Source of the DNA: Nemertoderma westbladi | Lineage: Eukaryota > Animalia > Xenacoelomorpha | NCBI GenBank assembly: GCA_032718475.1 | Contig: JAUCBJ010000106.1 | Span: forward strand, 1 to 61,393 | Reading direction: 5' to 3' | Length of the DNA stretch: 61,393 nucleotides | Notes under the pieces: generated by a model | What the model was told of the DNA's origin: nothing | Databases searched by the model: none | Seen by the model: only the letters and a program-made list of their open reading frames with translations | Program-made: the position numbers and the translations under genes | Part shown: positions 1 to 41,110 of the stretch, one piece after another | Numbering within the stretch: the stretch's first letter is position 1 | How the letters are laid out: every line of letters begins with the position of its first letter

Positions 1-1535
1 CGCAAGGATGGGAAACATATGTGGGAATGTATGGAAATGAAGAAAGATGTTCTCTTCCTCAATCGGGATTAGTTGCAGAATGAGACTCAGGATAATTGTT
101 GGGCGATGCAAGATAGTTTTGAGAATAATTATACCTAATCATATATAAATGGATTTCCTTTGTTATTTTTTTGTGTCAATATGGGGGCGAAATAACAGTT
201 ACGACTAACGAGTAATATAATTTATAAAATAAATAGTAAGTAAATTGTAAATAAATATTTAATAATAAATAATAACAAATTTTCATTTAAGTAAAATTGA
301 CACCTTCGAAAATAAAAAGTGTATAGTATAGTATAGTAAAGTGTATAAAGTAAAATGTATACATGTAAAGTGGAAATAATGTATGTAAAGTGGTGTACAT
401 ACAGTACATACAGTATGATAGGGTTCAATCAAAACAAATATGAAATATATTTGTAATCAATCGCAAGTAATAATATCCGACCAACAAAAGTAAATTCAGC
501 AGTTAGTGTAGCTTTTAGGGATATCTAGAGGTCCCTAAGCAAATCACACTAACGTGTTAGTGGCACTTATAGTTAGTGAGCTTGGTGGAACAGGCTAAGT
601 GATAAGGGTGGCTCAGGTTAGTGGCACTAAGCAGTTAGCACTAACACTAAGCCGTTAGTGAGAGTTGGTGGAACCGGCTGCTGATCTCACACCCTACAGT
701 CATATTCCCTAACTTTCTTAACTTAATTTAAATTTATATATATGTATAGGCCTATATGTTTCAAATTTCAAGCAAAATTTGGGGCGGGGCGGGGGGGGGG
801 GGGGGGGGCGTCCTTGTCATCAGAAAATGACACTATATTACGGGTCATGGTGTATATCCAATTTAGTACGCGGTAGTAGATTTTGTAACAGAGTTACAAT
901 GGTTGAGTAATTCTTCACTGTACAGTACAGAAGAACTGTAGTTCGTTGAACTTAACGGAGACCGCATGCCGGTAGTATAGTTGAGAGGAATAATGATTTT
1001 TACAAGAGAGTGTTTTATAGCACAGAAGCAAAAAAGTAAGATCAATAATATGAATTACAATGAGTTACTGGTAAACCATCTACATAATGTAATACAAGTC
1101 AGCTTATACAACATAATAATTATACAACATATTGCATATTATTGCTGTTATACAGTACTACAGTATGTAGGTCTAATGCATTACGAAATATAAATTAAGT
1201 TTATTAGCTTTACAGCCTAATTTAGGCGCATTTTAATAAATTTTTGCATTTAGGACAATAATTCGGAGCCGGATAATTATTTCCCTGACGTAAAAACATC
1301 CAATTTTTAAAAGCCCACTGTATCTCCGCAATTTCTCAATGATATTTATACATTGTCGTATATAAAGTGTTTATACTGTAGATTAGATATCCTGTCATTG
1401 CATTGCAACCTTACCATTGGTTCATCCATAATCTATATATCGACCACTACTCTAAGGTACATACATACATTGCTTAGCAACCCGTGCATCGCAATACTCG
1501 CCACAGTTCGCAAACCAGCCATGTAAATCCCATAA

Positions 1536-3128
1536 TGGGGTAGACGACTCGGAAATTTTTTTTCGAGTTTTCGTTGGTTTCATGTGAAAGAGCATGTGAA
1601 AAAACCCCAGAGAGCAATTTTACTTCAAAAAAATTAATATTTGCCGAGTTATAGCAATTTTAAAACGCAAAATTAGCAACATCGAAAAATCAGGCCGTTT
1701 CAGAAAACTGCACGAGTGACGTCAGCCATAACACAGCAACAGTTGTCAAGCGCAGTTGATTGGCTAATATAAAGTATAATATTGCAGTATCTAAAATAAA
1801 ACAAATAATAAATGTAGCTATGTATTTATTTGGATGTGTATTTGTGTTGTGTTAAGAATCGATTATAGGATAGCGGCATGGAGGCAAATTATTCATATCA
1901 AGTTAATTATTCTAGAATAATATTTATTTCGTCCATGCCTGTATCGTAGAGCTGTAGCTAAAAACAAATAAGGCTAGCTAAATACTGCCAGGCGTTTCAT
2001 TAATCTATTTTTTTATTGTTTTTACAGCGAACAATGCGGGATGGGTAGATTAGCACTAGATGGAAATTATTTAGTTTTTTTTGTCAGTTCACTGTAAAGT
2101 GTTACTGGTACTAGTGTTGCACGTGTCACCATTATTCTGCCTTTCATAATAGCTGTTTTTGGTTTGACATCCAAAAATATCAAAATACCAAAAAATACCA
2201 AAACATAATGTTTTGGGCTATAGGTTTATGTTCTTGACATATTTTGGCTAGTTACATGTGAAAAAAAATGTTAAAGAAAATAAAAACAAATGTTTGTGGT
2301 AGCTATTGTTTTCAATGGTATGTACTGTTTTAATATTGTAGCTAGTGTTTTTATAAAATACCACAAAATCTTATTTTTTTATGCCATTTCAGATGTCATT
2401 ACACGAACGCATGTGGTAGAAGTAAAATGTCCAACATCAAAACATGCCATTCAAAAATCTTATCTTACACAATCGAATATCGTAAGCGCTAAATTCATGG
2501 CACAAATCCAACTTCAAATGCATCTTTGCAATAAACAGTGGGCCTTGTTTAGTATTGCAGATCCATCTATTGCAATAAATGGCGAAGTGGAAATAGTTGA
2601 AGTATCATATGATTCCATATACATGCAAAGTTTACTGAAAAGTAGTCGTAGCTTCTGGAAGGAATATATATTTCCCAAAATTGTGAAAAAATAGATAATT
2701 AAAAAATGTAAATTATACAGTAGTTATAGGTCAACTAAATTCTGATTAATGCTGATTGTATTGAGATGGCAGCTGAAGATATTTTTACTACGTCATCCAT
2801 TACAGCTACATGGGATATCAAATAATGTATTCTTAACACAACACAAAAACACACTAAATAAATATTAGCTACACAATTTATTTTAGTTACTAAGAGATTT
2901 ATATTGTATAGTAACCAATGAACATTTACTGCTGCACTAGTGACGTCACTAGTGCAGTTTTCTGAAACGGCCTGATTTTTCGATGTTGCTAATTTTGCGT
3001 TTTAAAATCGCTATAACTCGGCCAATATTAATTTTTTATAAGTAAAATTGCCTCTGGGGTTTTTTCACATGCTCTTTCACATGAAACCAACGAAAACTCG
3101 AAAAAAAATTTCCGAGTCGTCTACCCCA
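1536..3128. mobile_element. Non-autonomous TIR DNA transposon (Kolobok-like) carrying a YqaJ/lambda-exonuclease remnant
   Basis: ~188-bp near-perfect TIRs (1536-1723 / 2941-3128; TGGGGTAGACGACTCGG...CCGAGTCGTCTACCCCA), with further degenerate inner IRs. Flanked by ATAA on the left and TTAA on the right. Confidence 0.75.
2392..2694 (+). pseudogene. YqaJ/lambda-exonuclease-like C-terminal exon remnant
   Basis: VVEVKCP (ExK motif), QIQLQMH and FWKEYIFP are typical of transposon-associated YqaJ nucleases. Preceded by a polypyrimidine tract and ttcag acceptor. Confidence 0.7.
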
Positions 3129-4424
3129 TTAATATGCAATAGGCCTATCAAGAGTCAACTAGAGTCTTATCGCGATGTTTCAGGAACGTGATTGGCTGAC
3201 CTCCATGTTTCCTCTCACCATAGTTTCTTTTTGGCTACTATTGTGGGGCAGCACGAGCAGTGCCGGATTAAGCCTCTGGTGGCCCTAAGGCACATTTTAG
3301 TAATCTCCAAAAATGGCCCGAAAATTGATATTTTTCCGCAAACCCTTTCAAAAGAAAAAGCTGCTAAAAACTGTGAAAATGTTGCGAAGGAAAAATAGAG
3401 TATTTTCGTTAGATACAGCGTGCAAATAAGTACTAAGTACTTTAATAATAAGTAATTTGCAAAAATAGTTTTCATCAAGAATTGTAACATTACTAAACGG
3501 CATATTATTATGACTATAAAACCTTTGCTATAAAAAGTGTAATGGTTTTGGTAGAATTTCTCACGCTTAAATTTTTAATATATTAATGGGACCATTACCC
3601 CAAATCTATTTGTTTTATTTATAAAGCTACTATTCTGAAACTTTAACACAATGATCTGTGATCTTTTATATACTACAGTATGAACACTGAGTATAGATAG
3701 CTTCATAAACCGTTTGTTCGAAAAATATGGCACTTTTGAGCAGGTCGGTTTTTTTTTCAAAAATTGTATAAATTTTGAGGCATATGTAAATTAGCTCACT
3801 TAAGGATCCGTAAAACCACCTGCATTGAAGTTCTTGGTCCAAGACTTTGGTAAAATGGAGCTAGATATGTAGACTATCTTCTATGAAAATTTTAGCACAA
3901 AATTATTGCTTTTGGAAAATTTATGGGGGTTTTAGTATTTCCGGGCTATATTTTGGGATTGAAATATTTTGTAATAAACAAAGTATTATAGAGTTACAAA
4001 ACCGGGTCTAGAAGATCCAAACGGCCATGTTTTACAAAACCAACGATTGTAGTCCTAAAGCTGCTGACCATTTCGTGCCACCTCTCGTGCTGCACGAGAG
4101 CCTATATAAGAAAGTGTCCTAATCTCTATTATATATTAAAACCGCAATAATTTTTATTGTCCGTTTAAATCCTTTTTTTGTCCTTTTTTTTATTTTTTAT
4201 GTCCTCCAAAAATCTAATGTTAGGTTCCATGCTACCGGTTTCTCTACTGCTGTTCTCTCAGGCTATCAGTACCGGTATTAGTATATATAGCACTATGTTG
4301 CTGCATTGTATGTACAGATGTAGGTATAAAGCAGGCATTTCTGTATTTTAGTACCGGTACTGCTGTAGGCCTACTGTGTAGCCTACCATTTAAATACGGT
4401 ACTGGTAGGCCTTCCGGCTGACCG

Positions 4425-5030
4425 GTTGTTTTGGTTAGAAAATCCCGCCTCATCTGTAACCTGCTCCTTTGCCTGATTTGGTAAAGTGACCGTTTATTGT
4501 TTTGGTTAGAAAGGCCCGCCTCTGTAACCTGCTCCTTTCCTTCATTTTGTAAAGTGACTGTTTATTGTTTTGGTTAGAAAATCCCGCCTCTGTAACCTGC
4601 CCCTTTCCCTCAATTAATTAAGTGATTGTTTATTGTTTTGGTTAGGAAATCCCGCCTCAGTAACCTGCGCTCCTTTCTCTCAATTGGTAATGTTATCGTT
4701 TATTGTTTTGGTTAGAAAATCCCGTCTCTGTAACCTGCTCCTTTCCCTGATTTGGTAAAGTGACTGTTTATTGTTTTGGTTAGAAAATCCCGCATCTGTA
4801 ACCTGCTCCTTTCTCTCAATTGGGAATGTTATCGTTTATTGATTTGGTTAGAAAATCCCGTCTCTGTAACCTGCTCCTTTCCCTCAATTAGTTAAATAAT
4901 CGTTTATTGTTTTGGTTAGAAAATCCCGCCTCTGTAACCTGCTCCTTTCCCTGATTTGGTAAAGTGACTGTTTATTGTTTTGGTTAGAAAATCCGGCCTT
5001 AACCTGCTCCTTTCCATCAATTGGTAATTG
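4425..5030. repeat. Minisatellite, ~68-bp unit, ~9 copies
   Basis: Unit GTTTATTGTTTTGGTTAGAAAATCCCGCCTCTGTAACCTGCTCCTTTCCCTGATTTGGTAAAGTGACT repeats with ~68-bp period. Confidence 0.95.
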
Positions 5031-6210
5031 TTTTTGGCTATAAAATGAGTGTTTGGCTACGTCATGTGGTAATCGATTATCGACAACAACCACAAACTAT
5101 TAAATTTAGAGTCTTTTACCACAGGCGCATATGGAATTCTATCTCATAGTCTATAAATCATGGAATCATGGAATGTTTTGGCACAGGCATAGTGAAACCA
5201 ACTGTCCGACAGACCAGAAATCAACAAATTTTGAATGTTTTGGCATAGGCATGTTGAAATCAGCAGTCTGACAGTTTGAAGAAATACATACATAAAAATC
5301 ATTAAAAGGACATTAAAAGTCATTAAAAGGACAACAAAAGTCATTATGCACAATTCGTAAAAACAGGAGGACAAAAAAAGTCAAATAAAAGGACATGAAA
5401 AATCACTGCCTATTAAAACCGTCATTCCCAAAATATCAAAATAAGTGATGTTTTAATTAGCGTTAAACTGGTTGTAAAAAACAGGTCCATTTCAATACTC
5501 GTCTCCTCCATTAGTCTCGTTTGTCTCTTTTGTCTAAAAATTGTTTTCTTAAACGTAGACTGGCGACCCTTATGCATATTCAAAGTCTCGAAACTCGAGT
5601 AACTGCTGATTTATGGCAGATGGATACTCGTATCTACTGCAAAACTCGTTGTGTTCGTCCTGTACAACCCGGTGAACAAATAAAAACCTTACAACATTCA
5701 AAATAGACTGATTAAAAGACAATAGCCCGGTCAAATATTTTAAAATTTTTCTGAAATAAATAGTGCATTTGGTTGTTCTGAAGAAATTTGGGGTGGGTAT
5801 TTTTTTTTAAATGAACGTCGTTTTAAACGACGACACTGTGTCTCCTCTCTGTTTCTGATTGCTTTACAAATTATTTCCTTGCCTGCTTGAGCAGGGCTCG
5901 CTTTCAAATAGTATTATGTTGTTGTACCGGTTTGTAAATTGATCAAAACACTCAACATTCAATAATATTTCAAAATAAAAACTTTTGTGTTCGTTTAATT
6001 AAATAATTACGGTATGAAGGTATACGGGGTTTTGAAGTCGCTGATCACGATGATACTGTAACAGTTCAAAATATTTCTGGTAATTTATGATTATCAAATA
6101 TGTGCTAGGCCTACTTATATTTTTCGTGTAACCGTTAGGTCCGCTGTTAGAGATAGAATATATGCAACTTAAGACTGCATGTTCAATAGAAGTGGATTAG
6201 GTGGGAGTTT

Positions 6211-6330
6211 GAGTGTCAGGGTCTAGTGGCTGAGCTGGTTAGCGCTACTGATGAGGCTTGATATGCTGAAACGTACGTATACCGCCGGTTCAACCCCCGG
6301 TGACGCGCTTTCTCATTTTTTCCTTTAATT
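6211..6330 (+). ncRNA. tRNA-derived Pol III unit (SINE head) containing a hammerhead ribozyme
   Basis: A-box TGGCTGAGCTGG (6227-6238), B-box/T-arm GCCGG-TTCAACCC-CCGGT (6284-6301) and a downstream T-run. The hammerhead core lies between the boxes. Confidence 0.65.
6242..6285 (+). ncRNA. Minimal type I hammerhead ribozyme
   Basis: CUGAUGA 6248-6254; stem II GGC/GCU; GAAA 6268-6271; stem III C-GUAC-G with palindromic loop; GUA cleavage triplet 6277-6279; stem I GCGCUA/UACCGC with one mismatch. Confidence 0.75.
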
Positions 6331-7492
6331 ACAGTTGCATAAACAGCTCATCTCCAATTTATTTATATTTTTCGTGCCTAGTTTGGCACATGTCTAAAAA
6401 TACCTGAATGAATCGGGTGAGTGTCATATTCATTATCAACATGTATCCCAGAGAACCTCGAAGGTTATAAAATTATTTTTGTTCATCAATTTTGCCCTAC
6501 TTGTTTTTTTTCTTGCCACTCTTTCGTGCCATTCAAAATTACCAGATATTTTTTCGACTGTTATAATGGAGTTCAATAATTCTGATCAGCATCCAAAAAC
6601 CGTTATATACCGCAACTAAATAAATATTTAAATTTTTTTAGAAAGTAAAAACTTGAAAATAATTTTAGTACGAAAAATATTGACATGTCTGTACCAGAAT
6701 GGGACCACAGTACGAAAACTAACATAGCTATGTACTGTAATTGGCGTTATGCGCAGTTGGATAGCGCATTACATTTTAGGAAATGTCAAAAAACCCCGGT
6801 TTTCCCAACAAACCTGACTCAAAGATAAATATGAATTACAATAAAATCTCTAAAATATGGGAAAGGGGGCCAATGAGTTGTTACATTCTGTTAATTTATC
6901 TATTATAATTTAATCTCTAAAAGTGGGAAAGCTCAGTTGGTTGAGCGTCAGGTCTGCAATCGATTGGATAAAATGATGAATTATTAATTAATAATATTAA
7001 ATAATGAATTAATTTATTATCAAAACTTAAGTTCACTCTCTTACTTTCAGGTAGTACAGTAGCTATAGAAAAAAGGAGCATTTTTATGTTTTGTGTTTAA
7101 GCAAACTGTTTGCTTGCTTGCTTGTAAAATAGTTAGTTAGTTAAGTTTATTTACACCATAACAAACACATTAGATGTATATAAATTACATAATGTACATG
7201 GTGATGATTTAGTTATTCAGTGCAATAGGCCAATTAGTTGAATATTTTGTTAATTGCTATAAACAGGGTACGAACACATATAAACTCAGCTACAATAATG
7301 TCTTATAATCCATCCTATAGGTAAAATGTTATAAAACGAAACACATTAGGCCCTATAACAAATAGAAAACAATAACCACTTAACTCTATTTCATTTAATT
7401 GGGGAGGGCAGCACTAACTTGTTAGTGTTAGCCAGGAACATGGTGGTTTCGTCGATATTACAGAGAAGTGGGCAGCGCTATACTTCACTATA

Positions 7493-11714: not shown

Positions 11715-13296
11715 CCCTATTAAACCCGGGGGGGGGGGGGGGGGGGTTCAATATGACCCCTCCCGTGGTTTTTTTATTATAATTCTGAAACAAACGCAGT
11801 TGGGATTCTGAAATTTTATGACTTTTCCTAAAAATCTATTGTCTTCCTAGTAGTGAAAACCGTTTTCAAAAATATTGGGTACTTTTCGAGTTATAGCACC
11901 ATTTTTTTTTATAGCACTTTTTTTGAGACGTTTTTTGAAAATTACATTTCATTAAATATGAATTGTAACATCTCTATTTTTGATTTACACCGGTTTTTTG
12001 GTGTTAGAAATTTGATGGAAGTCATATAAATTGATTTAGAAATTTCAAACTTGTTTTTTTCGGTGGGTGCCAAATTTTGGTGCCAGCACAAAATTTTGAA
12101 ATAAGTCAATTTTGTAAATCGATCGTTTGAAACATGTTATTTACGCAATTGGGGTTTTTTGGGTTTCTGGATTCGATAAAATATATACGAGCTGCAACAA
12201 GCGTATCAAACTTGTATTTTTCGGTGCTGTGTGCAAATTTTGGTGCTAGCACGAAATTTTGAAAATCCATTCAATAGATAAAATTGCTTGTGACAATTTA
12301 TTTCTTGCGTTTTAGAGGTAAATGGCTGTTCTGAATTCAATGGAAAATATAATTATCGAACTAGACATCTCAAACTTGTATTTTTGGATGTGGGTGCAAA
12401 ATGTGGTGCTAGCACCAAATTTTGAAAACCATCAAATATATCAATTGATTGTGTCACCTTGTTTCTTGCGTTATACGGGTTTGTGATGGTTCTGAATTCA
12501 ATGGAATCAGTAAAAATTTCATAAGTGTTCTCCAACTTTTATTTTTCGCCGGTGGGTGAAAATTGTTGTGCCAGCACCAAATTTTGAAGAATATGCAAAT
12601 TGATAAGTAGATAGTATCACCTTGTTTCTTGCGTTATACGGATTTATGAGGGTCCTGAATCCGATGGAATCAATAAAAACAACACTGGACATCGCAAACT
12701 TGTACTTTTTGGTGATGGGTACGAAATTTGGTGCTAGCACCAAAATTTGCCAAATTACGCCGAAAAATACAAGTAGCAATGATCTGGCATATTAGAAATG
12801 TATTCCTTTAGAATTAGAATCAGCGCCCTCGAAAACCTGAAAATGTGAATTTATAGCATCGTATAAGTGAATTAAAAATTTTGTGTTCTAACTGAAAAGT
12901 GCTGGTTACTTGTTTTTTTCATTTTTTTCTACCCAGAGAGGACTAAACAGCCATTTATATTAATCATATCATTTTTTAATATTTTCCAATGTATTTTGCA
13001 CCACAGAAAAGCTGTATTGAAAAATAATTAGCCGAAAATGTAACTTTCAAATTTGGTGAAAATTGTGCACTACTTGTAATTTTGGTGCTGCAATATAACC
13101 ACCCCAGTACATTTTTTCGAAAAATCGTGTCGGATTTTTTCGGTCGGATCCAGACAGGTGATACCTACGTACAAACAAAAAATCAGACGTTTTCGTAAAT
13201 ATTTGTAGATTTTAGAGGGGGGGGGGGGGTCATTATGACCCCCCCCCCCCCCCCCCCGGTATTTGTACAACATTTTATAGCCCGGTACTAATAGGG
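11715..13296. mobile_element. piggyBac-like non-autonomous element
   Basis: TTAA TSDs at 11711-11714 and 13297-13300. TIRs CCCTATTAAACCCGGG / CCCGGTACTAATAGGG; subterminal G/C-tract hairpins; internal ~160-bp repeats (~5 copies, 12045-12750); no ORF. Confidence 0.8.
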
Positions 13297-13300: not shown

Positions 13301-14246
13301 AGGTCGGTGATTTCATTTCTGATGCCAGTTTTTACTTTCATATAAATCTAGTCTGTTTGTCTGTCCGTCTTTCTGTCAGTCAGTCTGTCAACACTTAAAA
13401 AAGAATACAAACTATCTAACATTCTCGCTATGGGGGTTTTAAGTAAAGTAAAGTAAAAAAAGTAAAAGTAAATTTTCTTCGGCCGCTAGGACAGGGATTA
13501 CGCACAAAGTCTGACTGACGACTTATTTCCAGTGCGGTCCACCCAGAACTTTACTAGCCAGGGGAAACTCCAGTACTCATTTAGCTACCACTTAAGGATG
13601 CAAGGCAGAGGTGCACCCAGGCTGGTCCCTTTAATGCATTCGTGCCAAAACGAAAACTGCCCTGGCCCATGAGAGGATCGAAACCACGACCTACAGGAGA
13701 TGTGAATTCAATGCAACCACTACACAAAGGTGGAACCTTAAGGGGTGCTGATTTCATTTCTGATGTCAGTTTTCACGTTTACATAAATGTAGTCTGCCTT
13801 TCTGTTGGTCTATCGGTCTTTCTGTCAGTCAGTCTGTAAAACGTAATAAGAACACTAACTAACTAACATTCTCGCTATGGGGGTTTTAAGGGGTGCTGAA
13901 TTCATTTCTGATGTCATTTTTCACGTTTACATAAATCTAGTCTGTCTTTCTGTCAGTCAGTCTTTCGAAACTTAAAAAAGAATACAACCTATCTAACATT
14001 CTCGCTATGGGGGTTTTAAGGGGTGCTGATTTCATTTCTGATGTCAGTTTTCACGTTTACATAAATCTAGTCTGTCTTTCTCTCGGTCTGTCGGTCTTTC
14101 TGTCAGTCAGTGTGTAAAACATTAATAGAGAATACTACCTAACTAACATTCTCGCTGTGGGGGTTTTAAGGGGTGCTGATTTCATTTCTGATGTCATTTT
14201 TCACGTTTACATAAATCTAGTCTGTCTCTCTGTCGGTCTGTCGGTC
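13301..14246 (+). repeat. ~140-bp tandem repeat with a (CTGT)-like microsatellite, interrupted by three insertions
   Basis: Unit ...CTCGCTATGGGGGTTTTAAGGGGTGCTGATTTCATTTCTGATGTCAGTTTT...CTAGTCTGTC... Begins at ~11670 and resumes at 26247; inverted copies at 26279-26391 and 45985-46085. Confidence 0.85.
13444..13737 (-). mobile_element. tRNA-derived SINE
   Basis: TTAAG duplication at both ends; (TTTAC)n tail on the minus strand; B-box-like GGTTTCGATCC. Body motif GTACTCATTT...AAGGATGCAAGGCAGA is shared with 58880-59100. Confidence 0.6.
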
Positions 14247-15505
14247 TGTAAAAGCTTTTGTGGGATAACTGATACGTTTGCCTTTGCTGGCCAGTTCTCC
14301 CCCAGGCGCTGGAATACTCTAAAAAGGTTTTCTAACTGTATATATATTCCCCTCGCCCGCAAGGTACCTTTACAGGTGTTTTAACGGACATAAAAATCAT
14401 TCTGCTATATACGTGTTTTGGCGGACATGGTAAGGCAAAAAACTTGTAATGCACCAACTACCTTTCACAGCTTAGCCGTGATGATTCATATTACGACATC
14501 TAGCAGCTGGTTGCTGACATGGAAACAGCCATTGGACGCGTGGTTCTTTGTTTGGCTTGGGCCAATCAGGGCGGTTTTTCCTGTCGACGTGTAGCTTTTC
14601 TGCCGATCATAAGGAGAGTGTTCTGTCTTACTGTTTTACTTGTTACTTTGTTGTTATTGCTGTCTAAGCCAGAAACACCGGCCTTTTGGGAAGAACTCTA
14701 GTAAACTGCTTGAATTATCGAAAGTATAAACTGTTACCGAATCGAATCACAATTAATTAATCAATCAAATCGAAAGACAGCATTAACTCACTTAATTTAA
14801 TTGCATTAATCATATTGTTTGTACTGTTATTTTACCGTCAGTTATTAATTGTACCTATTTGTTGATGGAAATATTGCTATTTGGATAATACGGATAAATC
14901 ACCCAATTCCCAATTTTCTTGATAACACTACAGGTTAGAGAGACCGGCTATACATAACAATTGCGATTTATATTAATGTGGTGTGTATTGAATCCAATGT
15001 TATTTAGCAGACCCTACGTGAGTCAATTACTGCTCTCTTTATGTGTGATCAAATGTACTGACTGTCGGCAGAATAGTGTGTATGATTGTGATTGGTAACA
15101 AAGTATTTCCTAAAGAATACGCTTTATACTTTAATCATAAGCAGTATCGTTGCGTTTTAGTATAAGTCTTAGTTCTGTTTAAATAGATAAAGCGCCACGT
15201 CCTAAAGGAACTGTTAATATTTCCCGAAAGCCAATAATATCTGTCAGAGATTAATTATTAACGATCTATCGAATAATACAGTAAGTTTACACTGCAACCT
15301 TACACTGTAATAATACAATTCAAGCATCCGAATTCAGTCTCCCGGGTGTAGATCCATCGGGTGAATGATCGCGCATGGGCTGACTTCGGCTAATGTTTTG
15401 CGTATTAGCATAAAATATTGTCGTATGCTAAAGTGGTTTTAATTAACTAGAAGACATATAAATTTTGGCAGGTTAAACTGCTAAAGGTCTTCAAAAGCGC
15501 GAACA
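14247..15505 (+). repeat. 5' LTR (1259 bp)
   Basis: TGTAAAAGC...GCGCGAACA, nearly identical to 24983-26241. Confidence 0.97.
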
Positions 15506-16455: not shown

Positions 16456-17765
16456 TTCAGAGTTTATGCGATTATTCGCAACATTCATGTCCCCAAGTTT
16501 ATTCCTACAGTAATTGTGTTTGTTACACATACCGTTATAGTTAAATTAACTCCGGTACTACACGGGCTGCTTGGCGTAGGTAAAGACTGACGACTTTGTG
16601 CTTCGGTCACTCCAGCAGATGCCGTGGTTCTTTTAACTGTTCAAGTATATTTAACTACTGATTATTTGTTATACCGGTACTTGTACCTAATTTAGGGTTT
16701 AGTGTACAGTGCTATCCGAAGTAATTAGTGTAGGCAGTATATTTGTGTTGTAAAGTGGTTGATAGGCACATTCGTTAGCTCTATTAGCTTCTGGGTAGGA
16801 ACAATCCGTGATACATAACGTAGTACCTATAGCGATACGGTTATAGGTCGTCAGGCGGTGGTATTTTCCTATCTGGACAGTACAGTATATTTACTACTAC
16901 TTATTATTTCAAATACCGTAGTACCCTGTCCGTTGTAATAAACCGAATTCTAACCCTTTGTTAGACTGGTTTGTAGACTTCCTGTAAAATTACCCTAAAA
17001 AATTCGTACGTAATATTTTGTTGTGTTTAATTAGAGAATTAATCTCACCCGTATCGTAAGTAATTTGTAGTATTAAGTAACTTAGGTAAATTAGAATTAT
17101 CTGTTTTAGTGTCCAATAAATAGCACTCCACTGAGAGCGCACAGCTTCTGTGTAGTGACCCCCAGAAATAATAACATTTATTTCAAATATTGACAAAAAC
17201 CCATATAACGGGTATATAAATATTATAAATCAACTCAAACGATTTATAAATAGTAGGCCTGCCATACAACAACTAGGTCTCAATATCAGTTGGACTGCTG
17301 CTTAAATAACGGTAATAAAGTAAGTTAAAGTAACCAAGTAACCCTAAAATATTCAGAAATTCAATTATTCTAAAATAATTGACATACCGGTATTTACCAT
17401 AGGCTTATTATATTTATTTCTATAAATTTGTGCTGAAATCATACCGGTACTCTGTAATTAATTATAGTCCAGAATTATACTTATATACTATAAGTGTAGG
17501 CTGTATACCGGTATTCACGATAGGCCTATTATATATTTATATATATTTGTGCTAAAATTATATACCGGTACTCTGTGACAAATCTAGTCTGTAATAATAC
17601 TTATATATATATTATAAGCATACCGGTATTCTAATATATTATATATATATCACGCTACACTGAGTAGCAGCATCGGTAATTAATTATTAGGCTAACAGTG
17701 ATACTGAATTACTAGACTTGCTTTAACTGTAATATAGCAGTAGGCATTCAACTGTACAATCAAAC

Positions 17766-20700
17766 ATGGCTGACACAAGGCAAACTCTGTCAGATAGTCT
17801 CCTAGAAACAACAGCCTGTTTCTCAGATCAAAGTGTAGAGAATCCCAGACCGAGGTCTGAAACCCCTCATACTGTAAGAAGGGCAACCCCTGCAGTGGTT
17901 GTGTCAGAACCTAGGTTGGTAGAAAAGATTTCGCAATTTGCGAAGTTAGTGAAGCGCCGTTGGTCTGCCATAGGCACTCGGGCCCAAGTCAAGCGGGATC
18001 AAGAAGAAGCTATAAAACAGCAGCAACCTCCTAGCCAAGAACCGGGTCCTCAGCGGTCCGATGGCTCCAGTAGTTCGGATACTGTTGAGCGGACGCCAGA
18101 ACGCGGAGCGAAGATGGCGGATACGGTTTATGATGGGCGGCCAGCCTGTGGGGAATCAACCGACGCCACTTCTTCTCGAGTGGAAAGTGAGGTGGAAAGC
18201 GAAGTGGAAAGTGAGGTGGAAAGCGAAGTGGAAAGCGAGGTGGAAAGCGAAGTGGAAAGCGAATTAACATCAGCAGAGAAGCCGCGAACTAGAGACGCTA
18301 TCGACATTTATTTGTCCGACTATCAGCGATTCCTAGGAGACGAAGAGTTGAGGAGACGGCTGTCTGGACTTTCCCCTAATAGTGAAGGAACCAAGCTTGT
18401 GTTGGACGCAATCGATGCCGAAATGTTAGCTGCAAACCAAGCTGAATGTGATGAAAAACTCCGCCTCATTAGAGTCCGAGAAGAACAAATAAAGAAAAGA
18501 AGGATAGAGGAACAAAAGGCGGCAGCTATGGCAGAAGTAGAAGCAGAAAGAAAGGCAGCAGCGGCAGAAGCAGAAGCAAAAGGAAGGGCAGCTATGGCAG
18601 AAGTAGAAGCAGAAAGAAAGGCAGCAGCGGCAGAAGCAGAAGCAAAAAGAAAGGCAGCGGCGGCAGAAGCAAAGGCGGAAAGGGCAGTGGCCGAAGCAGA
18701 ACGGAGAGCCGCTGAGCAGACTACCCAACTGGAGTTGGAAAATCTGCAAGAGACACAAGACAGTATAAATAAACAGTTTACTGCTAATCAAATGCAGATG
18801 ATGAGAAAAGCTACTCCCAAGCGCCAGGGATACACATCCTCGGAGGAAGGCGAGACCACCGATCCTGAAGGCGGAGGAAATAGATCTCGTCTAAACAGGC
18901 GTATAAAAACATCTTACCGTCACAAATTGCCTAATTTGCCCCCAGCTGTCAGAAGACAACTAGCTAGCACAGACTTAGGTAGTACAGAACCTACAGACCA
19001 AACCATTCAGGTCAAAAGACTACCTACAATAGTTGATGAGCCTGAAATAATTAGGCCTGTCGTTCCCCAAGTCACTTCTGTGCTAGAGACCCCTGCACTT
19101 CCAGAGCTTAACTCTAAATTCCCTTTACACAGCACTACACTGCCTGTACCCGATGGAACAGTCCATGCAAATACCCCTGTCCAGATAGCAGAGAGAGAAA
19201 TCAATAATTTGTCTCCCGTCGTCCCGCGTCAGCCCGCTACTATGTTGGCGACTCCCGCTTCGGCGGTTGAGTGGGTGGAAGAGGGACGGCGGGGGATGAA
19301 TCTCCTGCTAGGACAGATGCAGGAGACTGTCCACCAACTTAAGGGAACAGTGAGGGAAGGTAGAGCGGAGTTGCAAGAAGTGCAGCAAAGTATCGCGCTA
19401 GAACGCGATAAATTAGTCAATATACAAAAGGGCATACCAATACCCCCTGTAACATTGTGTCAACCCGTTAGGTCTGAAGTATTACATGCGCAAGGTGTGG
19501 AGCCTACACGCATCTATACTGCTAGTGAAGTTGAAACTCCTATAGCAAACCCTATTAAGGGTGATTATAGATCTGTTATTAATGATATTCCTTATCGACC
19601 TGATAATGATCCGAGAAATTTGTATACCGATAATTCGATATTAAATAACACGATGGCCCAGGAAAGCTTTACGCGTCAGATGGCTAGAACAGAAGCCCGC
19701 CAAGCGGTCAAAGTGGGAGAGATCGTCAAATTCAATGGAGATGAGATGAAATGGTTACCTTTCAACGAATATTACAAAGATAGCATACAGAACTCTGTAC
19801 TATCTAACGGAGAGAAACTTAGATTCCTCATCAAGTGCTTGGAAGGACCTCCCAAGTTAATGGCGTTAAAGTTTATTGGACATCCAGATGGATTAAGACA
19901 AGTTTGGGATACATTAAACATCAGGTATGGTAACAAGGATAACATAGCTAAGTATTTGTATACAAAATTAGTAGCCCCCCGACACTTCCTTAGTAGTGGG
20001 ATTATAGAGTTTTCCGATGAAATTCAAGAGATCTGTAGACAACTGGACTGGTTAGGTAAGTCGCATGAATATCAGAGTTCCATGGTTATTGGAGCCGTAG
20101 TCTCTACTTTACCAAAGGGTGGAGTATGTACGCGCTGGGACAAGAAAGTGTTGTACATGAATGAACAACAACGACGAAGTCCTACCATGGCTGATCTCAT
20201 GTCTTTCTTAGATAGTGAAGTAAAATTACAACTCATAAGGCAGGCCAGAGAGAAAACATCGGAAAATAAGGTAAGTGAGAAACCCGATTCTAGGAGAAGG
20301 ATAATACCAGTGTGTTATACTGACGACGGCGAAAGCCAAGCTTCTCAAGAAGAGGACAGCGGGAAAGACACCGAACGATCTTACTATGACAACAAGACCT
20401 ATAAAGACGTAAGTAAATACAAGTCTCGAACCAGTGACAGGAGAGAACAGGTAACAACAACTCCTCCTACGTCTCCTAAGAGAATTCACGGAAGAAAGCC
20501 CGAAGAAAGAACGAGAGTGCAGAACGTTAACCAAGTTAAGGTGAGTAACATCAAACCAAAATGTGCGCTGTGCGACGGGCCCCACCGTTTGAGTGCGTGT
20601 GCAGAATTCCTAAAGAAATCCATGGCAGATAGACGTGGAGTCCTGTGGGATAAACGGTTATGTTATAACTGTCTCAGACGCGGACACCAGCGGCGAACCT

Positions 20701-21989
20701 GTTACTCTGACGCAAGGTGTGCTAAGTGCGGCGCGAAACATCATAGCTTGTTGCACACGGAATTCGAACGAAACAACCCTAGTCAGGTAAGTGAGCCCAA
20801 ATCACATGTCCAATTCAGTGATGTGAACGACACTGACCAAAGTTCTGAGTGGGAAGGATTCTATACGGACGAATTCTCCGATGCCAACGAATCCTGTTAC
20901 CTAATAAATACCACAGTGTATCGAGCACTTACGGATGAAAAGGACACTGACGAGTTTACTCCAACTCCTTTTGACAAACAACCATCTTGGAAAGTTCCAA
21001 CTTCCAACATAGGAATAAGAGAATTTCCTGTAGTGCAAGTTCGAGTTCATGGTCCCAACAAGAGTTACATAGTGAACGCCCTACTTGACTCCGGCAGCAC
21101 AGGAACATTCATCGATCAAGAACTAGCCGAAGATATCTTTGCTGGACAACCCAAATTCCAAACTAAGTTGAATATGTCCGGAATTATGCAGGTTTGGAAA
21201 TCTACCATAACGGCAGATTACTATGTAGGTGCGTTGTCCACCCCCCAGGATAAATTAGGAGCACAAAGTATAAGGTCAGTAAAAATGGTGGCTATAAAGA
21301 ACTTCGCTACTACCCAAGCAGACCTTTATAATTGGGACGAGGACGAGTGCATCCAACATCTTGAGATACCTCGATTCCAAACCGATTATCCTGGAGTGCA
21401 AATACTCATCGGCCAAAACGCGCATGAGGCGCTCGAGCCATTAGAGAAACGGCCTGCTCAACCACAGCCACTACAAACCTATGCGGTAAGAACTAGAGTA
21501 GGTTGGTACTTCACTGGCCCTTCCCGTAGAACTCTCAAAGAGAGATTACCTCAACAACAGGTATACCAAGTAAAGGGGGAAGTGGAGAGCAGTGATGTGG
21601 ACGAACTAACTGAGGGAACACCATACTCCTCAGATAATGACGATATTAACTCCAATGAAGATCAATGGAGACATCGCCCCGAGATGATTAATCTAGCCGA
21701 CATCGCTTCCAGAGGAGCGACTCCTCAAGAACGGATAGATACTCCCGGCTGGTTAGGTGGACCCGACTCCCTAAGTAAAGAAGAAGATGAATGGCCTCCT
21801 CATCTTACCACGGCGGAGAGTAGACAGGCCAAGGGAGCGGAGAAAGTAACACGACAACCCAATCACCCAGCTGGTCGTTTATGTTTACTGGAAAGAGACC
21901 AAAAACTGTCCGGAAACTATGGAAGGCAAGATACTCTTCCTACGACCACTTCCCTAATCCGACAAATATCTAGGGACTCCATAACGTAA
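17766..21989 (+). CDS. gag: BEL/Pao Gag-aspartic protease polyprotein fused to the RNase H C-terminal tail
   Basis: Coiled coil; DUF1759-like region (KFNGD..W..F...EKLRFL..CLEG); three BEL knuckles CX2CX3HX4C, CX2CX4HX4C, CX2CX3HX4H; protease ALLDSGS/ILIG; QWRH..NLADIASRG..W..GP..WP. No YVDD motif or integrase. Confidence 0.93.
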   Translation: MADTRQTLSDSLLETTACFSDQSVENPRPRSETPHTVRRATPAVVVSEPRLVEKISQFAKLVKRRWSAIGTRAQVKRDQEEAIKQQQPPSQEPGPQRSDGSSSSDTVERTPERGAKMADTVYDGRPACGESTDATSSRVESEVESEVESEVESEVESEVESEVESELTSAEKPRTRDAIDIYLSDYQRFLGDEELRRRLSGLSPNSEGTKLVLDAIDAEMLAANQAECDEKLRLIRVREEQIKKRRIEEQKAAAMAEVEAERKAAAAEAEAKGRAAMAEVEAERKAAAAEAEAKRKAAAAEAKAERAVAEAERRAAEQTTQLELENLQETQDSINKQFTANQMQMMRKATPKRQGYTSSEEGETTDPEGGGNRSRLNRRIKTSYRHKLPNLPPAVRRQLASTDLGSTEPTDQTIQVKRLPTIVDEPEIIRPVVPQVTSVLETPALPELNSKFPLHSTTLPVPDGTVHANTPVQIAEREINNLSPVVPRQPATMLATPASAVEWVEEGRRGMNLLLGQMQETVHQLKGTVREGRAELQEVQQSIALERDKLVNIQKGIPIPPVTLCQPVRSEVLHAQGVEPTRIYTASEVETPIANPIKGDYRSVINDIPYRPDNDPRNLYTDNSILNNTMAQESFTRQMARTEARQAVKVGEIVKFNGDEMKWLPFNEYYKDSIQNSVLSNGEKLRFLIKCLEGPPKLMALKFIGHPDGLRQVWDTLNIRYGNKDNIAKYLYTKLVAPRHFLSSGIIEFSDEIQEICRQLDWLGKSHEYQSSMVIGAVVSTLPKGGVCTRWDKKVLYMNEQQRRSPTMADLMSFLDSEVKLQLIRQAREKTSENKVSEKPDSRRRIIPVCYTDDGESQASQEEDSGKDTERSYYDNKTYKDVSKYKSRTSDRREQVTTTPPTSPKRIHGRKPEERTRVQNVNQVKVSNIKPKCALCDGPHRLSACAEFLKKSMADRRGVLWDKRLCYNCLRRGHQRRTCYSDARCAKCGAKHHSLLHTEFERNNPSQVSEPKSHVQFSDVNDTDQSSEWEGFYTDEFSDANESCYLINTTVYRALTDEKDTDEFTPTPFDKQPSWKVPTSNIGIREFPVVQVRVHGPNKSYIVNALLDSGSTGTFIDQELAEDIFAGQPKFQTKLNMSGIMQVWKSTITADYYVGALSTPQDKLGAQSIRSVKMVAIKNFATTQADLYNWDEDECIQHLEIPRFQTDYPGVQILIGQNAHEALEPLEKRPAQPQPLQTYAVRTRVGWYFTGPSRRTLKERLPQQQVYQVKGEVESSDVDELTEGTPYSSDNDDINSNEDQWRHRPEMINLADIASRGATPQERIDTPGWLGGPDSLSKEEDEWPPHLTTAESRQAKGAEKVTRQPNHPAGRLCLLERDQKLSGNYGRQDTLPTTTSLIRQISRDSIT

Positions 21990-24982: not shown

Positions 24983-26241
24983 TGTAAAAGCTTTTGTGGG
25001 ATAACTGATACGTTTGCCTTTGCTGGCCAGTTCTCCCCCAGGCGCTGGAATACTCTAAAAAGGTTTTCTAACTGTATATATATTCCCCTCGCCCGCAAGG
25101 TACCTTTACAGGTGTTTTAACGGACATAAAAATCATTCTGCTATATACGTGTTTTGGCGGACATGGTAAGGCAAAAAGCTTGTGGTGCACCAGCTACCTT
25201 TCACAGCTTAGCCGTGATGATTCATATTACGACATCTAGCAGCTGGTTGCTGACATGGAAACAGCCATTGGACGCGTGGTTCTTTGTTTGGCTTGGGCCA
25301 ATCAGGGCGGTTTTTCCTGTCGACGTGTAGCTTTTCTGCCGATCATAAGGAGAGTGTTCTGTCTTACTGTTTTACTTGTTACTTTGTTGTTATTGCTGTC
25401 TAAGCCAGAAACACCGGCCTTTTGGGAATAACTCTAGTAAACTGCTTGAATTATCGAAAGTATAAACTGTTACCGAATCGAATCACAATTAATTAATCAA
25501 TCAAATCGAAAGACAGCATTAACTCACTTAATTTAATTGCATTAATCATATTGTTTGTACTGTTATTTTACCGTCAGTTATTAATTGTACCTATTTGTTG
25601 ATGGAAATATTGCTATTTGGATAATACGGATAAATCACCCAATTCCCAATTTTCTTGATAACACTACAGGTTAGAGAGACCGGCTATACATAACAATTGC
25701 GATTTATATTAATGTGGTGTGTATTGAATCCAATGTTATTTAGCAGACCCTACGTGAGTCAATTACTGCTCTCTTTATGTGTGATCAAATGTACTGACTG
25801 TCGGCAGAATAGTGTGTATGATTGAGATTGGTAACAAAGTATTTCCTAAAGAATACGCTTTATACTTTAATCATAAGCAGTATCGTTGCGTTTTAGTATA
25901 AGTCTTAGTTCTGTTTAAATAGATAAAGCGCCACGTCCTAAAGGAACTGTTAATATTTCCCGAAAGCCAATAATATCTGTCAGAGATTAATTATTAACGA
26001 TCTATCGAATAATACAGTAAGTTTACACTGCAACCTTACACTGTAATAATACAATTCAAGCATCCGAATTCAGTCTCCCGGGTGTAGATCCATCGGGTGA
26101 ATGATCGCGCATGGGCTGACTTCGGCTAATGTTTTGCGTATTAGCATAAAATATTGTCGTATGCTAAAGTGGTTTTAATTAACTAGAAGACATATAAATT
26201 TTGGCAGGTTAAACTGCTAAAGGTCTTCAAAAGCGCGAACA
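24983..26241 (+). repeat. 3' LTR (1259 bp)
   Basis: Copy of 14247-15505 with about six substitutions seen by eye. Confidence 0.97.
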
Positions 26242-26391: not shown

Positions 26392-27899
26392 TGATGACGT
26401 CACCAACACTTACGTTGACAAGATAGTTAACCTAACTAGATCATGGACGGAAGAGTGCCGCAAGTTTACATGGCTCAAACGTTTGAGACAATATGCCAGA
26501 GGCAAAAACGACTTTCCAAGAAGACTTCCCTTGGCTGAAATTGGTAATTGTGAAGTTGATATTATAAAACATTATCAATTGCGATATTTCGCACAAGAGT
26601 TCAGAGCGATCAATCAGGGTAAACAGATCAAGTCTTCACCGATCTTGAGTTGGAGTCCAATAATCTACAAGGGTTACTTTGTCACAAGTCCAGACTCCAA
26701 AACATTGACTTCGTACTAGACTTTAGGTATCCTATCATGAGTTACAGCGCGCTATGATACTGGATGCACATGTACGACTCAAACACGTAGGTAGACACCA
26801 CTGTCTATCACACTTACGCTCGAGGTTTGTACTGATTAGGCCTAGTAAGGCACTGAGTTCGGTAACACGGAACTGTGTGATTTGTAAGAAGGTGCACGCG
26901 AGGATAGGACACCAAGAAATGAGTGAACTACCATTAGCTAGATTACAGGCATTTAGACCCCCTTTCACTGAGACAGGGATAGACTGTTTTGGACCCATAA
27001 TCGCGAAACGCGGAAGGGTACAGGTAAAACGCTTGGGATTAATCTTCACCTGCAATATCGCGGAAATATTGAACGTGTGACAGATTTAACCACCAACGCC
27101 TTTATCCTAGCCTTACGGCGATTTATCGCTAGACGTGGATTGGTCAAATCCATCTATTGCGACCAAGGGACTAACCTTGTGGGTACAAGGAATGAAATCT
27201 CCAGAGCCTTAAGGAGGTTGGACCAAAATCATATTTCCGACTAACTACGTCCTCACAATATTGTCTGGAGCTTTAACACTTCTGACAGTCCGTGGAGAGG
27301 CGGAGTTTGGGAGAGATTAATTGGGTCAATCAAAACGGCAATGGCGAAAGTAATACCAACGCAATGCATTTTGACAGACGACCAATTGACGACGTTGTTA
27401 ATAGAAATCGAGGGGGTTCTGAACACAAGACCCATCGCTTTGATCCCAGACAACAACGACTCACAGTTTGCCTTGACACCAGCGCACCAGTGTGCTTATG
27501 CAGGCGCCGACAACATTGTTGCCCACTTCGGTACCTGTCGATAGTGACGGTAACGGCAACAAAGCTTGGAAAATCACTCAATTATTAGCCAACAAATTCT
27601 GGGAAATATGGCAGAAACACTATTTGCCCTCTATTTCGGCCAGAACCTCTTGGTATCTTAATACCCGATGTCTGAAACGAGGTGATCATGTTTTATTGGC
27701 TGAAACCAATTTGAGACGACGGTTTTGGCTGACTGGAGTCATTTTGACCACACACCCGACATCAAGTGTAGTAAGGACAGTTAGTGTACGGACTATTGAT
27801 GGTCGTACCGTAGATAGGCCTGTACAACGTCTCGTGCTCCTTGAGGAGACTAGAAACGAGACGGGAGACTACAAATCTCCACCCAACATTTGTAAATAG
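26392..27899 (+). pseudogene. BEL/Pao integrase (HHCC, DDE core, DUF5641-like C-terminus), frameshifted
   Basis: AHVRLKHVG..CVICKK; GIDCFGP; IYCDQGTN; PWRGGVWERLI; EGVLNTRP; FWEIWQKHYL..RPVQRLVLL, spread over several frames. Confidence 0.93.
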
Positions 27900-32358: not shown

Positions 32359-33805
32359 TGTTGGATTATTTCACTGTTAAGTAGCAATCTACAGTACCGC
32401 TTAAAAACTTTTTAAATCCGACGTATTTTGACTTGATTTGTAGTAATGTAATATGCCTACTTCCTATTAGTAGATATTAGTTCACTAGTGAATCTATTGG
32501 CGCTGTGGTCAGATGGGTTAAGGCGTTTGGTTACATTCTAGGTAGGGGTTCGAATCTCGGTCGGGAAATTTGCATTTTTGGGCTATTAAATTTTCGGTTT
32601 CATTGGATTAGATCCAATCCAACACATGGAACGATGGGTTGGGCCAATCATAGGGCATTTAATAACTTATTGCTCCAATGTGCGGCCATGGAATGTTGTC
32701 AAATGTTCTAGTTAATTCCATGCCTAGGATTTGATATATAAGGGGCTGTTTGCCCTTCGGTTATCACTTGACTGCAAAAAAATGATATCTCTTGCACAAT
32801 ATCACTTTCACTTACCTTGACTTAACTTATCTTACTTATTGTTATTTGTAAAGTAAAATTGATAAGTCTTTTGTAATTACGTTAATATACTGTGAACTCT
32901 TGAACATGTATATTTTAACGTGTCCACATTTGGGACAGCCAAACACTTGGAGAATGGGTGCCTAAACCGTTAGGCCTTCAGCAACGCAGGGAAAAGATGT
33001 CCGCAACACACTAAGCGCCCACATTAGTTTCGCCCGCGCGCCCGTTCGAAGTATGACCTCTTGCCATACAGCGCCCACTTCAGAGGAAGGTAAGACTTTG
33101 TTTGACGCCCTTGCCCGCAGTAAGACCTTAGATCAGGGTAAAGCATGACGCCATCCTGGGACGCCGTAAAATTTAAGATTAAATATCTCAGATTCAGACA
33201 GGAAAAACTCTGGATCAATCTGTATATCCTACAGGTGTGAGCTGTTGCTGTTCGTTAGTACGCGCAAGTACACTTTAGGTGCGGATAGCACATGCTCTAT
33301 AATTTGGTGATTTGCAGTACTGACAGTACAGTACCGGTTCACTTTGTAGCCCATATAGTTTGCCCGCCCTGTCTGAGTCCAAAATATTTGATCAGGCGAG
33401 GCTTTCTGCTACCGGCACATGCTTGGCCTACGGAGGTTTACTAACATCCTACCGCGCCCTTGCCACGTACTGACAGGTATTTACTGCTAACCACCGCAAA
33501 AACAAAGTTCTTGAATCAAATTTGTATACCAGATCAGCTAACGTACGTTAGTAATTAACACCTATGCTCTTATCTCACAATCAGAATCTGGTATTAGTGC
33601 CGATCACGGGTGTAGTTACTAACACCGTAATTGCCCGGTTGAGTTGTGGATAAGGAGGAGAGAGCTTTGACGTCAGTTTGTAAGTATTGAGCCTACATCG
33701 TGCGACTAGCTATTTCGAGTAGCTAGCGCCCGGCATTGTTATTTTGATTAAAATCACTAAAACCTAGTATAACGGCGATATACCAAAATTGTTTTATTCG
33801 CAACA
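32359..33805 (+). repeat. Probable 3' LTR of the second BEL element
   Basis: Begins TGT after GGAGCGG; CCAAT boxes and TATATAA at ~32735. The end is inferred. Confidence 0.6.
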
Positions 33806-35433: not shown

Positions 35434-35825
35434 AGTAGTATGGTAAACAGCTGAAATAAAACAGCGTCTGCCAAAGTCTACCATGTTAAAGAATTTGCCG
35501 AACGGCTCTTGCCCCGCCTACTTACTATGATTACTATTGTTGCCCCACCCACTTACTATGGTTACCATGGTTATCATTGTGCATATGTAACATATGTCAC
35601 CACTGTGTATATGTGACATATGTGGTATAAGGCTAGTCCGCAGACGGAAGTAATTTAATTAATTCGTGTCTACCGGTTGGCGTTTGACCTTGAACCGCAA
35701 TAGGTAAAACCCAATATCGCTAAGCAACAAGTTGTGGGGCGAGCCGCGAATTGGGTGTAAGGTTATAGTATTTATAATATTATTTTTAATTTGATTATTA
35801 TACTTAAATCCATCACCATTACTAT
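35434..35825 (+). repeat. Left TIR
   Basis: Reverse complement of 54330-54711 with about 7 substitutions and 2 indels by eye. Confidence 0.95.
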
Positions 35826-36920: not shown

Positions 36921-37002
36921 GCGTGTGGGTACTATTGTTGAATTTTGGTAATTATTTATTGTTATTATATTAATTGTTGAAATTAAATTACATTAACTTA
37001 CA

Positions 37003-37401
37003 TTAATGTTGGGTGGGAGGCTGCGTTCTTGTTTGCCCCATCATTCTTGGGGGGCAGGCGCAAGTCGGGCGGACTACCCCACCAACAATTCTACCCGGCT
37101 CCACAGGGACTACCCCTTCTTGCGGCGGATCCGGGGGGAACCACGGCGATAAGCCACGACCTCTCCCTCGGGGCCGCTTATTCGGAAATACCATGGCAAT
37201 AGGCCTAAGAGGCCTACCAATCCCCGGATAAAAATTGATAGGCCTATACAACGCTGCCATCGGTGTATTAGGCCTTCTAAGGGGTTCAATGGTACCCCCG
37301 CGACTCCCCCCGCCGTAAGTTTGGGGCACCCTGCCAGAAACGGGTATTTGTTGGGTGGGGTCTTCTGCTTCAGGATTCTTGAGTTCGCCGCTTTCAGCCA
37401 T
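37003..37401 (-). CDS. Polinton hypothetical Pro/Gly/Arg-rich protein
   Basis: GC-rich 132-codon ORF between AT-rich spacers, on the same strand as the structural module. Confidence 0.5.
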   Translation of the reverse strand: MAESGELKNPEAEDPTQQIPVSGRVPQTYGGGSRGGTIEPLRRPNTPMAALYRPINFYPGIGRPLRPIAMVFPNKRPRGRGRGLSPWFPPDPPQEGVVPVEPGRIVGGVVRPTCACPPRMMGQTRTQPPTQH

Positions 37402-38008
37402 ATTGATAATATTATATATTATATAATAATATTTATTAATAATAATTTAAAATTAAAATAATAAAGTGTTGTCAATATCGCCATTCCCAATGTTATATAG
37501 CAAACTACAACAGAACTAACTACTTTGGTAAGGCTAATTATCTATGCTTCGTATATGGCTTATTTTCTTTTGCGAAACCGGCCACATATGTGAGTAAATT
37601 GAACCCAGAGCTTTGATTGTCGTTAGAGCGTTTAATTATTGTCTAATGAGCGTAGCGTGGATAGAGATTCTGGCCTTTGTGTTAACCACATAGGTTGGGC
37701 GGCAGATGCTTGGTATATAACGGAAAGAGTTGGGTCCCAATGTGCTCTATGTCCAATTATTATTCCAGTTTTACCAGCCGCCCACACGTTAACGAGACCC
37801 CTGCAAGGTTTCTGCGATTGACGATGAAAATTAAAAACGAATAGTGCTGCGTGAAGACCCCAACCCACGTCACTTACCGTGTCCCATATATTTATTAAAA
37901 ATATTGCTATTACTATATACCCAAGAAATAAATATTTATTATTAATATTAACGCTAATAATATGTTCACACACCGCAATTGAATATACCCATAACCGAAA
38001 TAAATAAA

Positions 38009-38449: not shown

Positions 38450-38543
38450 CTTAGCGTACGCGTATCATTAAAAGTTTAAGATAATTTTTCTAATTCCGCA
38501 GGCGGCGTGGCTTCGCTTACTTTGTACTATGCGAGATCTTTAT

Positions 38544-41036: not shown

Positions 41037-41110
41037 ATAGTCGCTATTACTTCAGATAATCAGATAAGAATAAATAATAAATAATTTACATCGATTAAAT
41101 TGTGACTATC

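Follow-up and report, generated by a model that had tools for sequence, protein, structure and literature searches.

The window analysed here (the whole stretch of DNA, 61,393 nucleotides from Nemertoderma westbladi) is repeat-rich animal DNA, with a BEL/Pao-type gag (DUF1759, DUF5641), a Polinton-like cluster and LINE fragments. The BEL/Pao-type gag-protease region lies at 17733-21989 and an integrase tail at 27477-27899. The Polinton/Maverick-like cluster (37000-54300, minus strand), which carries integrase, ATPase, protease-like, dUTPase and polymerase-like ORFs, is bounded by a 392-bp inverted repeat (35434-35825, 54330-54711), and a broken RTE-like LINE with a (TAG)n tail is located at 56672-58868. 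Other repeats include a 1,259-bp direct repeat whose copies are 99.5% identical (14247-15505 and 24983-26241), a further multi-copy repeat at 6694-6860 and 6915-6960, and tandem arrays with units of 68 bp (4426-5027), 163 bp (12206-12749), 130-150 bp (13809-14247) and 35 bp (60263-61074). Sequences reminiscent of tRNAs also recur: two D-arm-like fragments at ~6740-6770 and 6925-6960, and heads with B boxes at 32495-32570 (plus strand) and 13655-13745 (minus strand), which score only under relaxed ARAGORN settings and are probably ordinary SINE copies. The element that concerns us is itself nested in another repeat with inverted arms at 6059-6086 and 6536-6563 (24/28), and contigs join across the interior (noted at 6015-6100 and 6520-6600).

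From 6129/6132 to ~6359/6362, the window holds a damaged member of an abundant dispersed family of animal repeats, characterized by a type I hammerhead motif located between tRNA-derived A and B boxes (Table 1). This span is wider than the interval 6211..6330, to which an initial annotation of the sequence had assigned a hammerhead within a tRNA-like RNA polymerase III (Pol III) unit. Each piece that it listed, from the A box through the core, stems and GAAA to the B box and T-run, is present where it was placed.

Table 1. Features of the element and its borders, with positions numbered along the window.
Feature	Position	Strand	Remarks
Left copy of direct repeat, likely target-site duplication (TSD)	6112..6128	+	14 bp exact at 6115-6128; single-copy depth 37.8 at 6110-6129
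Upstream part of repeat, before tRNA-like head	6132..6214	+	Depth ramp 33k to 139k; loose ends at 6132; some copies continue upstream
Remnant of tRNA acceptor 5' strand, ~5 extra bases	6215..6226	+	GTCA pairs with TGAC 6301-6304 in majority-letter fold
A box, TGGCTGAGCTGG	6227..6238	+	RNA 6231-6236 predicted to pair with B box, extending helix I
Stem I 5' arm, matching tRNA D-stem 3' strand (positions 21-27); part of palindrome TAGCGCTA	6241..6247 (GCGCTA 6242-6247)	+	
Catalytic core CUGAUGA	6248..6254	+	No variant at or above 3% in X1
Stem II and loop	6255..6267	+	4 bp in family, 3 bp in window copy (near-private T6258, T6264)
GAAA (6268-6271), then CGTACG (6272-6277); palindrome ACGTACGT; predicted cut after GTA, at A6279	6268..6279	+	
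Stem I 3' arm, matching variable loop and T-stem 5' strand	6280..6286	+	Near-private C6282 and C6286 break 2 of 7 pairs; family U at 1.7
B box (T loop), GGTTCAA..	6287..6298	+	No variant at or above 3% in X1
T6 run, likely Pol III terminator	6316..6321	+	Kept in family, T7 in some copies; loose ends 6321, 6323
Downstream part with sharp 3' edge	6322..6359	+	Further 33-37 bases near 6323-6325 in many copies
Right copy of direct repeat	6360..6376	+	First A/T letters common to minority of family contigs; depth 5,309 at 6360-6369

Abundance was judged from the contigs of six public runs (X1 to X6) filed under one organism label, none of them recorded as RNA. The stretch is contained in X1 and X3, which derive from one sample, and in X2, which derives from an independent sample; X4 gave two matching contigs and X6 none, and contigs of this kind cannot show ends, strand or expression level. 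The summed contig depth in X1 is 37.8 at 6110-6129, rises to 33,000-257,000 across 6130-6359, falls to 5,309 at 6360-6369 and is 37 from 6370 onwards, and the same pattern appears in coarser bins in X2 and X3. At eleven single positions, the ratio of element to flank ranges from 810 to 5,460 in summed contig depth, which is not a copy number. The element is thus about a thousandfold or more above single-copy depth, placing the family on the order of thousands. A single copy with no core conservation among its relatives is therefore not what we find, since the family is abundant and no core variant reaches 3% in X1.

The borders of the repeat differ in character. On the 3' side, the edge is sharp, and the flanks of family contigs past 6365 disagree with one another (agreement 0.48 among 21 contigs). 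On the 5' side, the depth ramps over 50 bases, possibly as an artefact of assembly. In each of three runs, 9-11 contigs extend upstream of 6132, with an agreement of 0.72-0.77. The element is flanked by a 17-bp direct repeat with one mismatch (6112-6128 and 6360-6376), which contains 14 exactly matching base pairs and is likely to be a TSD. No empty insertion site was seen in the run contigs. The unit length is at least 231 bp, plus the 33-37 bp found in many family copies near 6323-6325 and absent from the window copy. The element stands single at this locus, with no tandem array there. An end-to-start joint, as expected of tandem or circular forms, was not seen among the joints listed (4 in one set and the best 15 of 29 in the other), where short contigs could hide one, and two loose-end motifs of the family contigs have no further occurrence in the window.

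A descriptor for type I hammerheads, comprising the core, a stem II of at least 3 pairs and 5 of 6 pairs in stem I, finds a single match in the window and none in 150 dinucleotide shuffles, whether or not the promoter boxes are required as well, and the core elements CUGANGA, GAAA and NUH are all present. Of the covariance models towards which the initial annotation had pointed, the hammerhead gave a faint signal and the tRNA gave none. At gathering scores, Rfam returned no match and nothing relevant on 2 kb around the motif, and at E<=10 on 136 bases it yielded one weak Hammerhead_3 match (12.8 bits, E 3.6) and no tRNA match; ARAGORN at default settings likewise called no tRNA at the element. 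A type III reading with GUC at 6221-6223 was rejected because it depends on T6222, which is near-private to this copy. Pattern scans of viral contigs matched 1, 43 and 12 stretches; the nested type I layout occurs in none of these. A scan of metagenome contigs gave 56 stretches, none of which is similar to the element by blastn. The same approach gave 0 matches in prokaryote genomes. The scans also recovered ordinary-looking phage or bacterial hammerheads (L007, L019, L061, L068, L072, L083, L090, L093 and L100).

The copy in the window is a poor representative of its family. At 6258, 6264, 6282 and 6286 it deviates from 99.4-99.8% of the depth, and the independent sample X2 agrees on the majority letters. 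With these letters restored, stem I has 7/7 pairs and stem II 4/4, compared with 5/7 and 3/4 in the window copy, and the pair probabilities predicted for both stems across three sequence contexts are 0.55-1.0, compared with 0-0.42. The window copy is predicted to have lost its catalytic activity. At the base of stem II, a G-U pair (T6267) accounts for 39% of X1 depth and G-C for 61%. The initial annotation had suggested that this G-U might be CpG decay, and it may indeed have begun as one CpG transition, but it is a subfamily variant rather than damage specific to this copy; the region of the hammerhead and B box contains five further CpGs, none with a listed variant at or above 3% in X1. The other X1 polymorphisms in the motif are at 6261 in loop II (50%) and an A-to-G change at 6275 in the palindrome (7.8%). 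The variants at 6261, 6267 and 6275 (a wobble) all obey local pairing, with a joint chance of about 0.03, and a further variant, A6234 (23%), converts a G-U pair between the A and B boxes to A-U. G6275 is also predicted to cost the whole unit its stem I, in monomer and dimer alike, and rare breaking variants occur in X5 (G6284C at 9% and A6254G at 4% of depth, in 1-2 contigs). Variable sites are few and no two-sided compensatory change was seen among the family variants, because the family is young.

In the monomer, according to folding predictions, the core would pair wrongly with the palindrome of stem III. With majority letters, the lowest-energy dimer is a double hammerhead in which an 8-bp ACGUACGU duplex and stems I to III are formed, and CUGAUGA, GAA and A17 are left unpaired, both for the motif alone and for the whole unit of ~105 nt. 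This agrees with the proposal in the initial annotation that a 1-bp stem III with a palindromic loop would lead to cleavage as a dimer. The gain in energy on dimerization is no evidence in itself, since the window copy also gains, in a fold that is not a hammerhead, and the stability of the whole unit is no better than that of shuffled sequences (127/200 as good). In the family, position 1.7 is U and loop II ends in A; these two bases have been suggested to make a tertiary contact in natural hammerheads (PMC11875169). In the element, this U could alternatively pair with A6241.

The relationship of the motif to a tRNA was established by scanning for GGTTAGCGC (6237-6245) 24-32 bases before a T loop, which gave at least 125 loci with 118 ARAGORN calls. 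In 96 distinct tRNAs, this sequence occupies positions 18-25, and therefore the 5' arm of stem I corresponds to the 3' strand of the D stem; nearly all spacers to the T loop are 26 bases, and that of the element is 41. On this alignment, the core with stems II and III fills the place of the anticodon arm, and stem I is formed by a D-stem strand and a strand from the variable loop and T stem. The placement of stem I at the anticodon stem, as originally annotated, is thus not borne out. Nor is the idea of a tRNA mimic: stem I consumes the D-stem and T-stem strands, of whose residual pairing (2/4 in the D stem and 3/5 in the T stem) nothing is left over, and therefore no cloverleaf mimic would form. 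The element holds a tRNA-derived promoter, not a tRNA mimic. The A and B boxes themselves are predicted to pair (probability 0.45-0.59 with majority letters), extending helix I past a GGUU bulge, and this model shows how tRNA boxes could refold into a ribozyme helix with their consensus intact.

We favour, with slightly more confidence than doubt, a reading in which the element is non-coding, Penelope-dependent and of the retrozyme type, with a nested Pol III promoter and an RNA template that is uncut or re-ligated. In this proposal, the A and B boxes would act at the DNA level, and Pol III would make an RNA of ~105 nt (~6215-6320) ending at T6. In this RNA, the strands from the D stem and the T stem would pair, as would the two boxes, to give one long helix I without a cloverleaf. 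The monomer would be inactive because stem III has one pair only; two RNAs could pair at their palindromes TAGCGCTA and ACGTACGT to form a double hammerhead, and a cut after A6279 would release pieces of ~65 and ~40 nt. This predicted cut does fall between the promoter boxes, as had been noted, with the A box at 6227-6238 and the B box from 6287; unit-length or circular RNAs, if formed, might then be permuted. New copies would come from a longer read-through RNA, made by Pol II or by Pol III leaking past T6, and possibly a circle derived from a tandem array. Copying by a Penelope-type reverse transcriptase, from a fixed start near 6360 into AT-rich DNA, would then regenerate the whole promoter-ribozyme unit.

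Several observations bear on the template. The depth is equally high on both sides of the cut, and the loose ends listed include none at 6280; most copies therefore span the cut, which argues for an uncut or re-ligated RNA. A Pol III transcript from ~6215 to T6 would not be able to template an element of 6132-6360, and since T6 would stop Pol III short of the 3' end, the polymerase that makes the template is unexplained. The 3' edge lies 80 bases past the cut in the window copy and ~115 in the family, with an ATT junction and a ragged 5' side. This fits the Penelope element PAc, in which reverse transcription starts 85-92 nt past the cut (by subtraction of the published coordinates), with ATT targets and an uncut RNA (PMC11167929). 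The 14-17 bp direct repeat is longer than the 8-10 bp TSDs described for rotifer Penelope elements (PMC3846280), and suits LINE-type insertion equally. No partner element was seen among the run contigs or at the locus.

The foremost alternative, which we consider possible if doubtful, is that the repeat is the truncated pLTR of a Penelope element that encodes proteins and has acquired a tRNA gene, the thousands of copies being 5'-truncated insertions of that element. The contigs extending upstream of 6132 and a sharp 3' edge at a PAc-like distance (PMC11167929) would be expected in that case, and hammerheads of Penelope-like elements (PLEs) are described as mostly solitary truncated copies (PMC4209133). 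However, the ATG within the core opens only 25 codons at the window locus, whereas the PAc ORF starts at stem II, and the geometry is canonical rather than that of the minimal PLE type, in which helix II has 7-8 bp, helix I has 4-5 bp and an extra base follows A9. On these two grounds together, we prefer a Penelope-dependent element without coding capacity to the end of a coding one. The disagreement among flanks past 6365 also speaks against a coding Penelope end, as does the lack of any Penelope family among the 15 window ORFs in a Pfam scan. At the locus itself, no RT or GIY-YIG ORF is present.

A tRNA SINE mobilized by a LINE, with the hammerhead as a passenger, is quite unlikely. The A and B boxes, the TSD-like repeat of 14-17 bp and the AT-rich 3' end fit such an origin, but a tRNA-derived SINE starts at its head and lies within one Pol III transcript. 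Here, the depth over 80 or more bases ahead of the tRNA head matches that over the head itself, and T6 lies well before the 3' end with 40-75 bases past it that belong to the repeat, so that a plain SINE, one of the two options in the initial annotation, is not supported. Moreover, the sole RTE-like LINE in the window, the one LINE end available there for comparison, has its (TAG)n tail and no tail in common with the element's 3' end, and an active ribozyme would be expected to truncate a SINE (PMC5786205).

Spread at the DNA level, as a Pol III small-RNA cassette in a MITE, as Helitron cargo or as the solo LTR of a Helenus-type TRIM, is very improbable. The element does look like an entire tRNA-like gene with leader, terminator and flanks, Helenus LTRs bear tRNA boxes (PMC10886601), and a 9-bp inverted repeat is found at 6161-6169 and 6334-6342. 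It has, however, no terminal inverted repeats, no LTR with TG..CA ends and a 4-bp TSD, and no primer-binding site (PBS) after its end, and the long direct repeat and asymmetric edges are out of keeping with such a history. That the motif is a chance match or long dead, as its Rfam scores far under gathering and the failure of the window copy to fold as a hammerhead might suggest, deserves almost no credence given the 0/150 shuffles and the perfect stems formed with majority letters.

Beyond the non-coding, Penelope-dependent reading, a more speculative extension, which we consider unlikely, is that a tRNA gene turned into a hammerhead where it stood: the anticodon hairpin would have given rise to stem II, the D and T strands to stem I, and the A and B boxes to the closing helix. 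Each genomic copy could then make a short Pol III RNA that serves as the missing dimer partner in trans and cuts the long element RNA, giving a copy-number-dependent ribozyme switch on transposition. As a source of stem II, the anticodon hairpin of tRNA-Asn(GUU) was compared, and the eukaryote-type Asn spacer ranks 1/86 for the T6261 variant. The tRNAs in this comparison were viral rather than the host's, random hammerheads score equally high in 9-11% of trials, and for the A6261 variant Ile takes the first rank.

A parallel is provided by 7 of the 56 metagenome loci (4 distinct sequences), in which a type III core is located between an A-box-like D arm and a B box. Four of these (L016:20-128, L020, L028 and L050) come from one metagenome and share ~125 near-identical bases with different 3' flanks; the others are L008:1466-1580, L045:1466-1575 and L003:1466-1575. 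In this family, the D-arm-like hairpin forms stem I, the predicted cut (GUU) is at tRNA position 8, and the core with stem II is found at the anticodon arm, followed by the B box. Rfam Hammerhead_3 matches 2 of the 4 scanned, with E values of 0.001 and 0.016. The family has no sequence similarity to the Nemertoderma westbladi element, and its flanks look eukaryotic, perhaps fungal, by eye. If the conversion of a tRNA into a hammerhead is true, this separate family would make it a recurring route of ribozyme origin.

Small hammerheads are common in animal repeats. The present element, as an abundant young family, combines promoter and ribozyme in one 72-base module with a built-in terminator, and its predicted RNA of ~105 nt should be easy to assay for concentration-dependent and trans cleavage. 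It could also reveal whether the RNA copied by Penelope enzymes is uncut or circular, because the promoter could not be restored from a template that had been cut at 6279.

Among known systems, the geometry of the element, with 6-7, 4 and 1 bp, matches the canonical metazoan type I hammerhead with a palindromic loop (Cervera 2014, PMC4209133). This hammerhead is carried by non-LTR retrozymes, whose TSDs exceed 4 bp (PMC7229834) and which have been tied to Penelope pLTRs (Li et al., bioRxiv 10.64898/2026.07.22.740005). Like them, the element has a type I hammerhead with a 1-bp stem III and a palindrome, a long putative TSD and a probable Penelope link, and it is probably a non-coding unit of a few hundred bases (non-LTR retrozymes span 150-450 bp). 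Non-LTR retrozymes are, however, defined by tandem arrays and circular RNA, and the main texts of PMC7229834 and bioRxiv 10.64898/2026.07.22.740005 mention no Pol III promoter for them.

The Penelope/Poseidon pLTRs and PAc of Anolis (PMC11167929, PMC4209133) resemble the element in having a hammerhead ~80-115 bases before a fixed 3' end, an AT-rich target and insertions that span the cut. The element differs from them in its tRNA boxes, its canonical geometry without the extra base, and the absence of an ORF from the core ATG and of an inverted arm at the locus. Pr77/L1TcRz of the trypanosome L1Tc and NARTc elements offers a precedent for one short stretch serving as both DNA promoter and RNA ribozyme (PMC3383444), but that ribozyme is HDV-like and cuts before +1, so that the promoter stays whole, whereas the predicted cut of the element would divide its type 2 Pol III promoter in two. 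Helenus TRIMs likewise have tRNA-derived boxes in a longer mobile unit that keeps upstream sequence (PMC10886601), yet they possess LTRs, a PBS, a PPT and TSDs of 4-5 bp, and the source consulted mentions a hammerhead in a reference only.

A precedent for the pairing of promoter and ribozyme is Sm-alpha/Sj-alpha of Schistosoma, high-copy repeats with a tRNA-derived Pol III promoter and a type I hammerhead (PMC6765202, PMC2770079). In Sm-alpha, the promoter precedes the hammerhead in tandem units, and transcription proceeds into the next unit (PMC6765202). In the element, by contrast, the hammerhead lies between the boxes, tRNA strands serve as stem I and T6 follows the B box. No hammerhead nested between A and B boxes was found in the literature searched, which was covered mostly at the level of titles and the opening lines of abstracts. 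The combination of a Pol III promoter with a hammerhead is already known from Sm-alpha, and it is the nested position that appears to be new.
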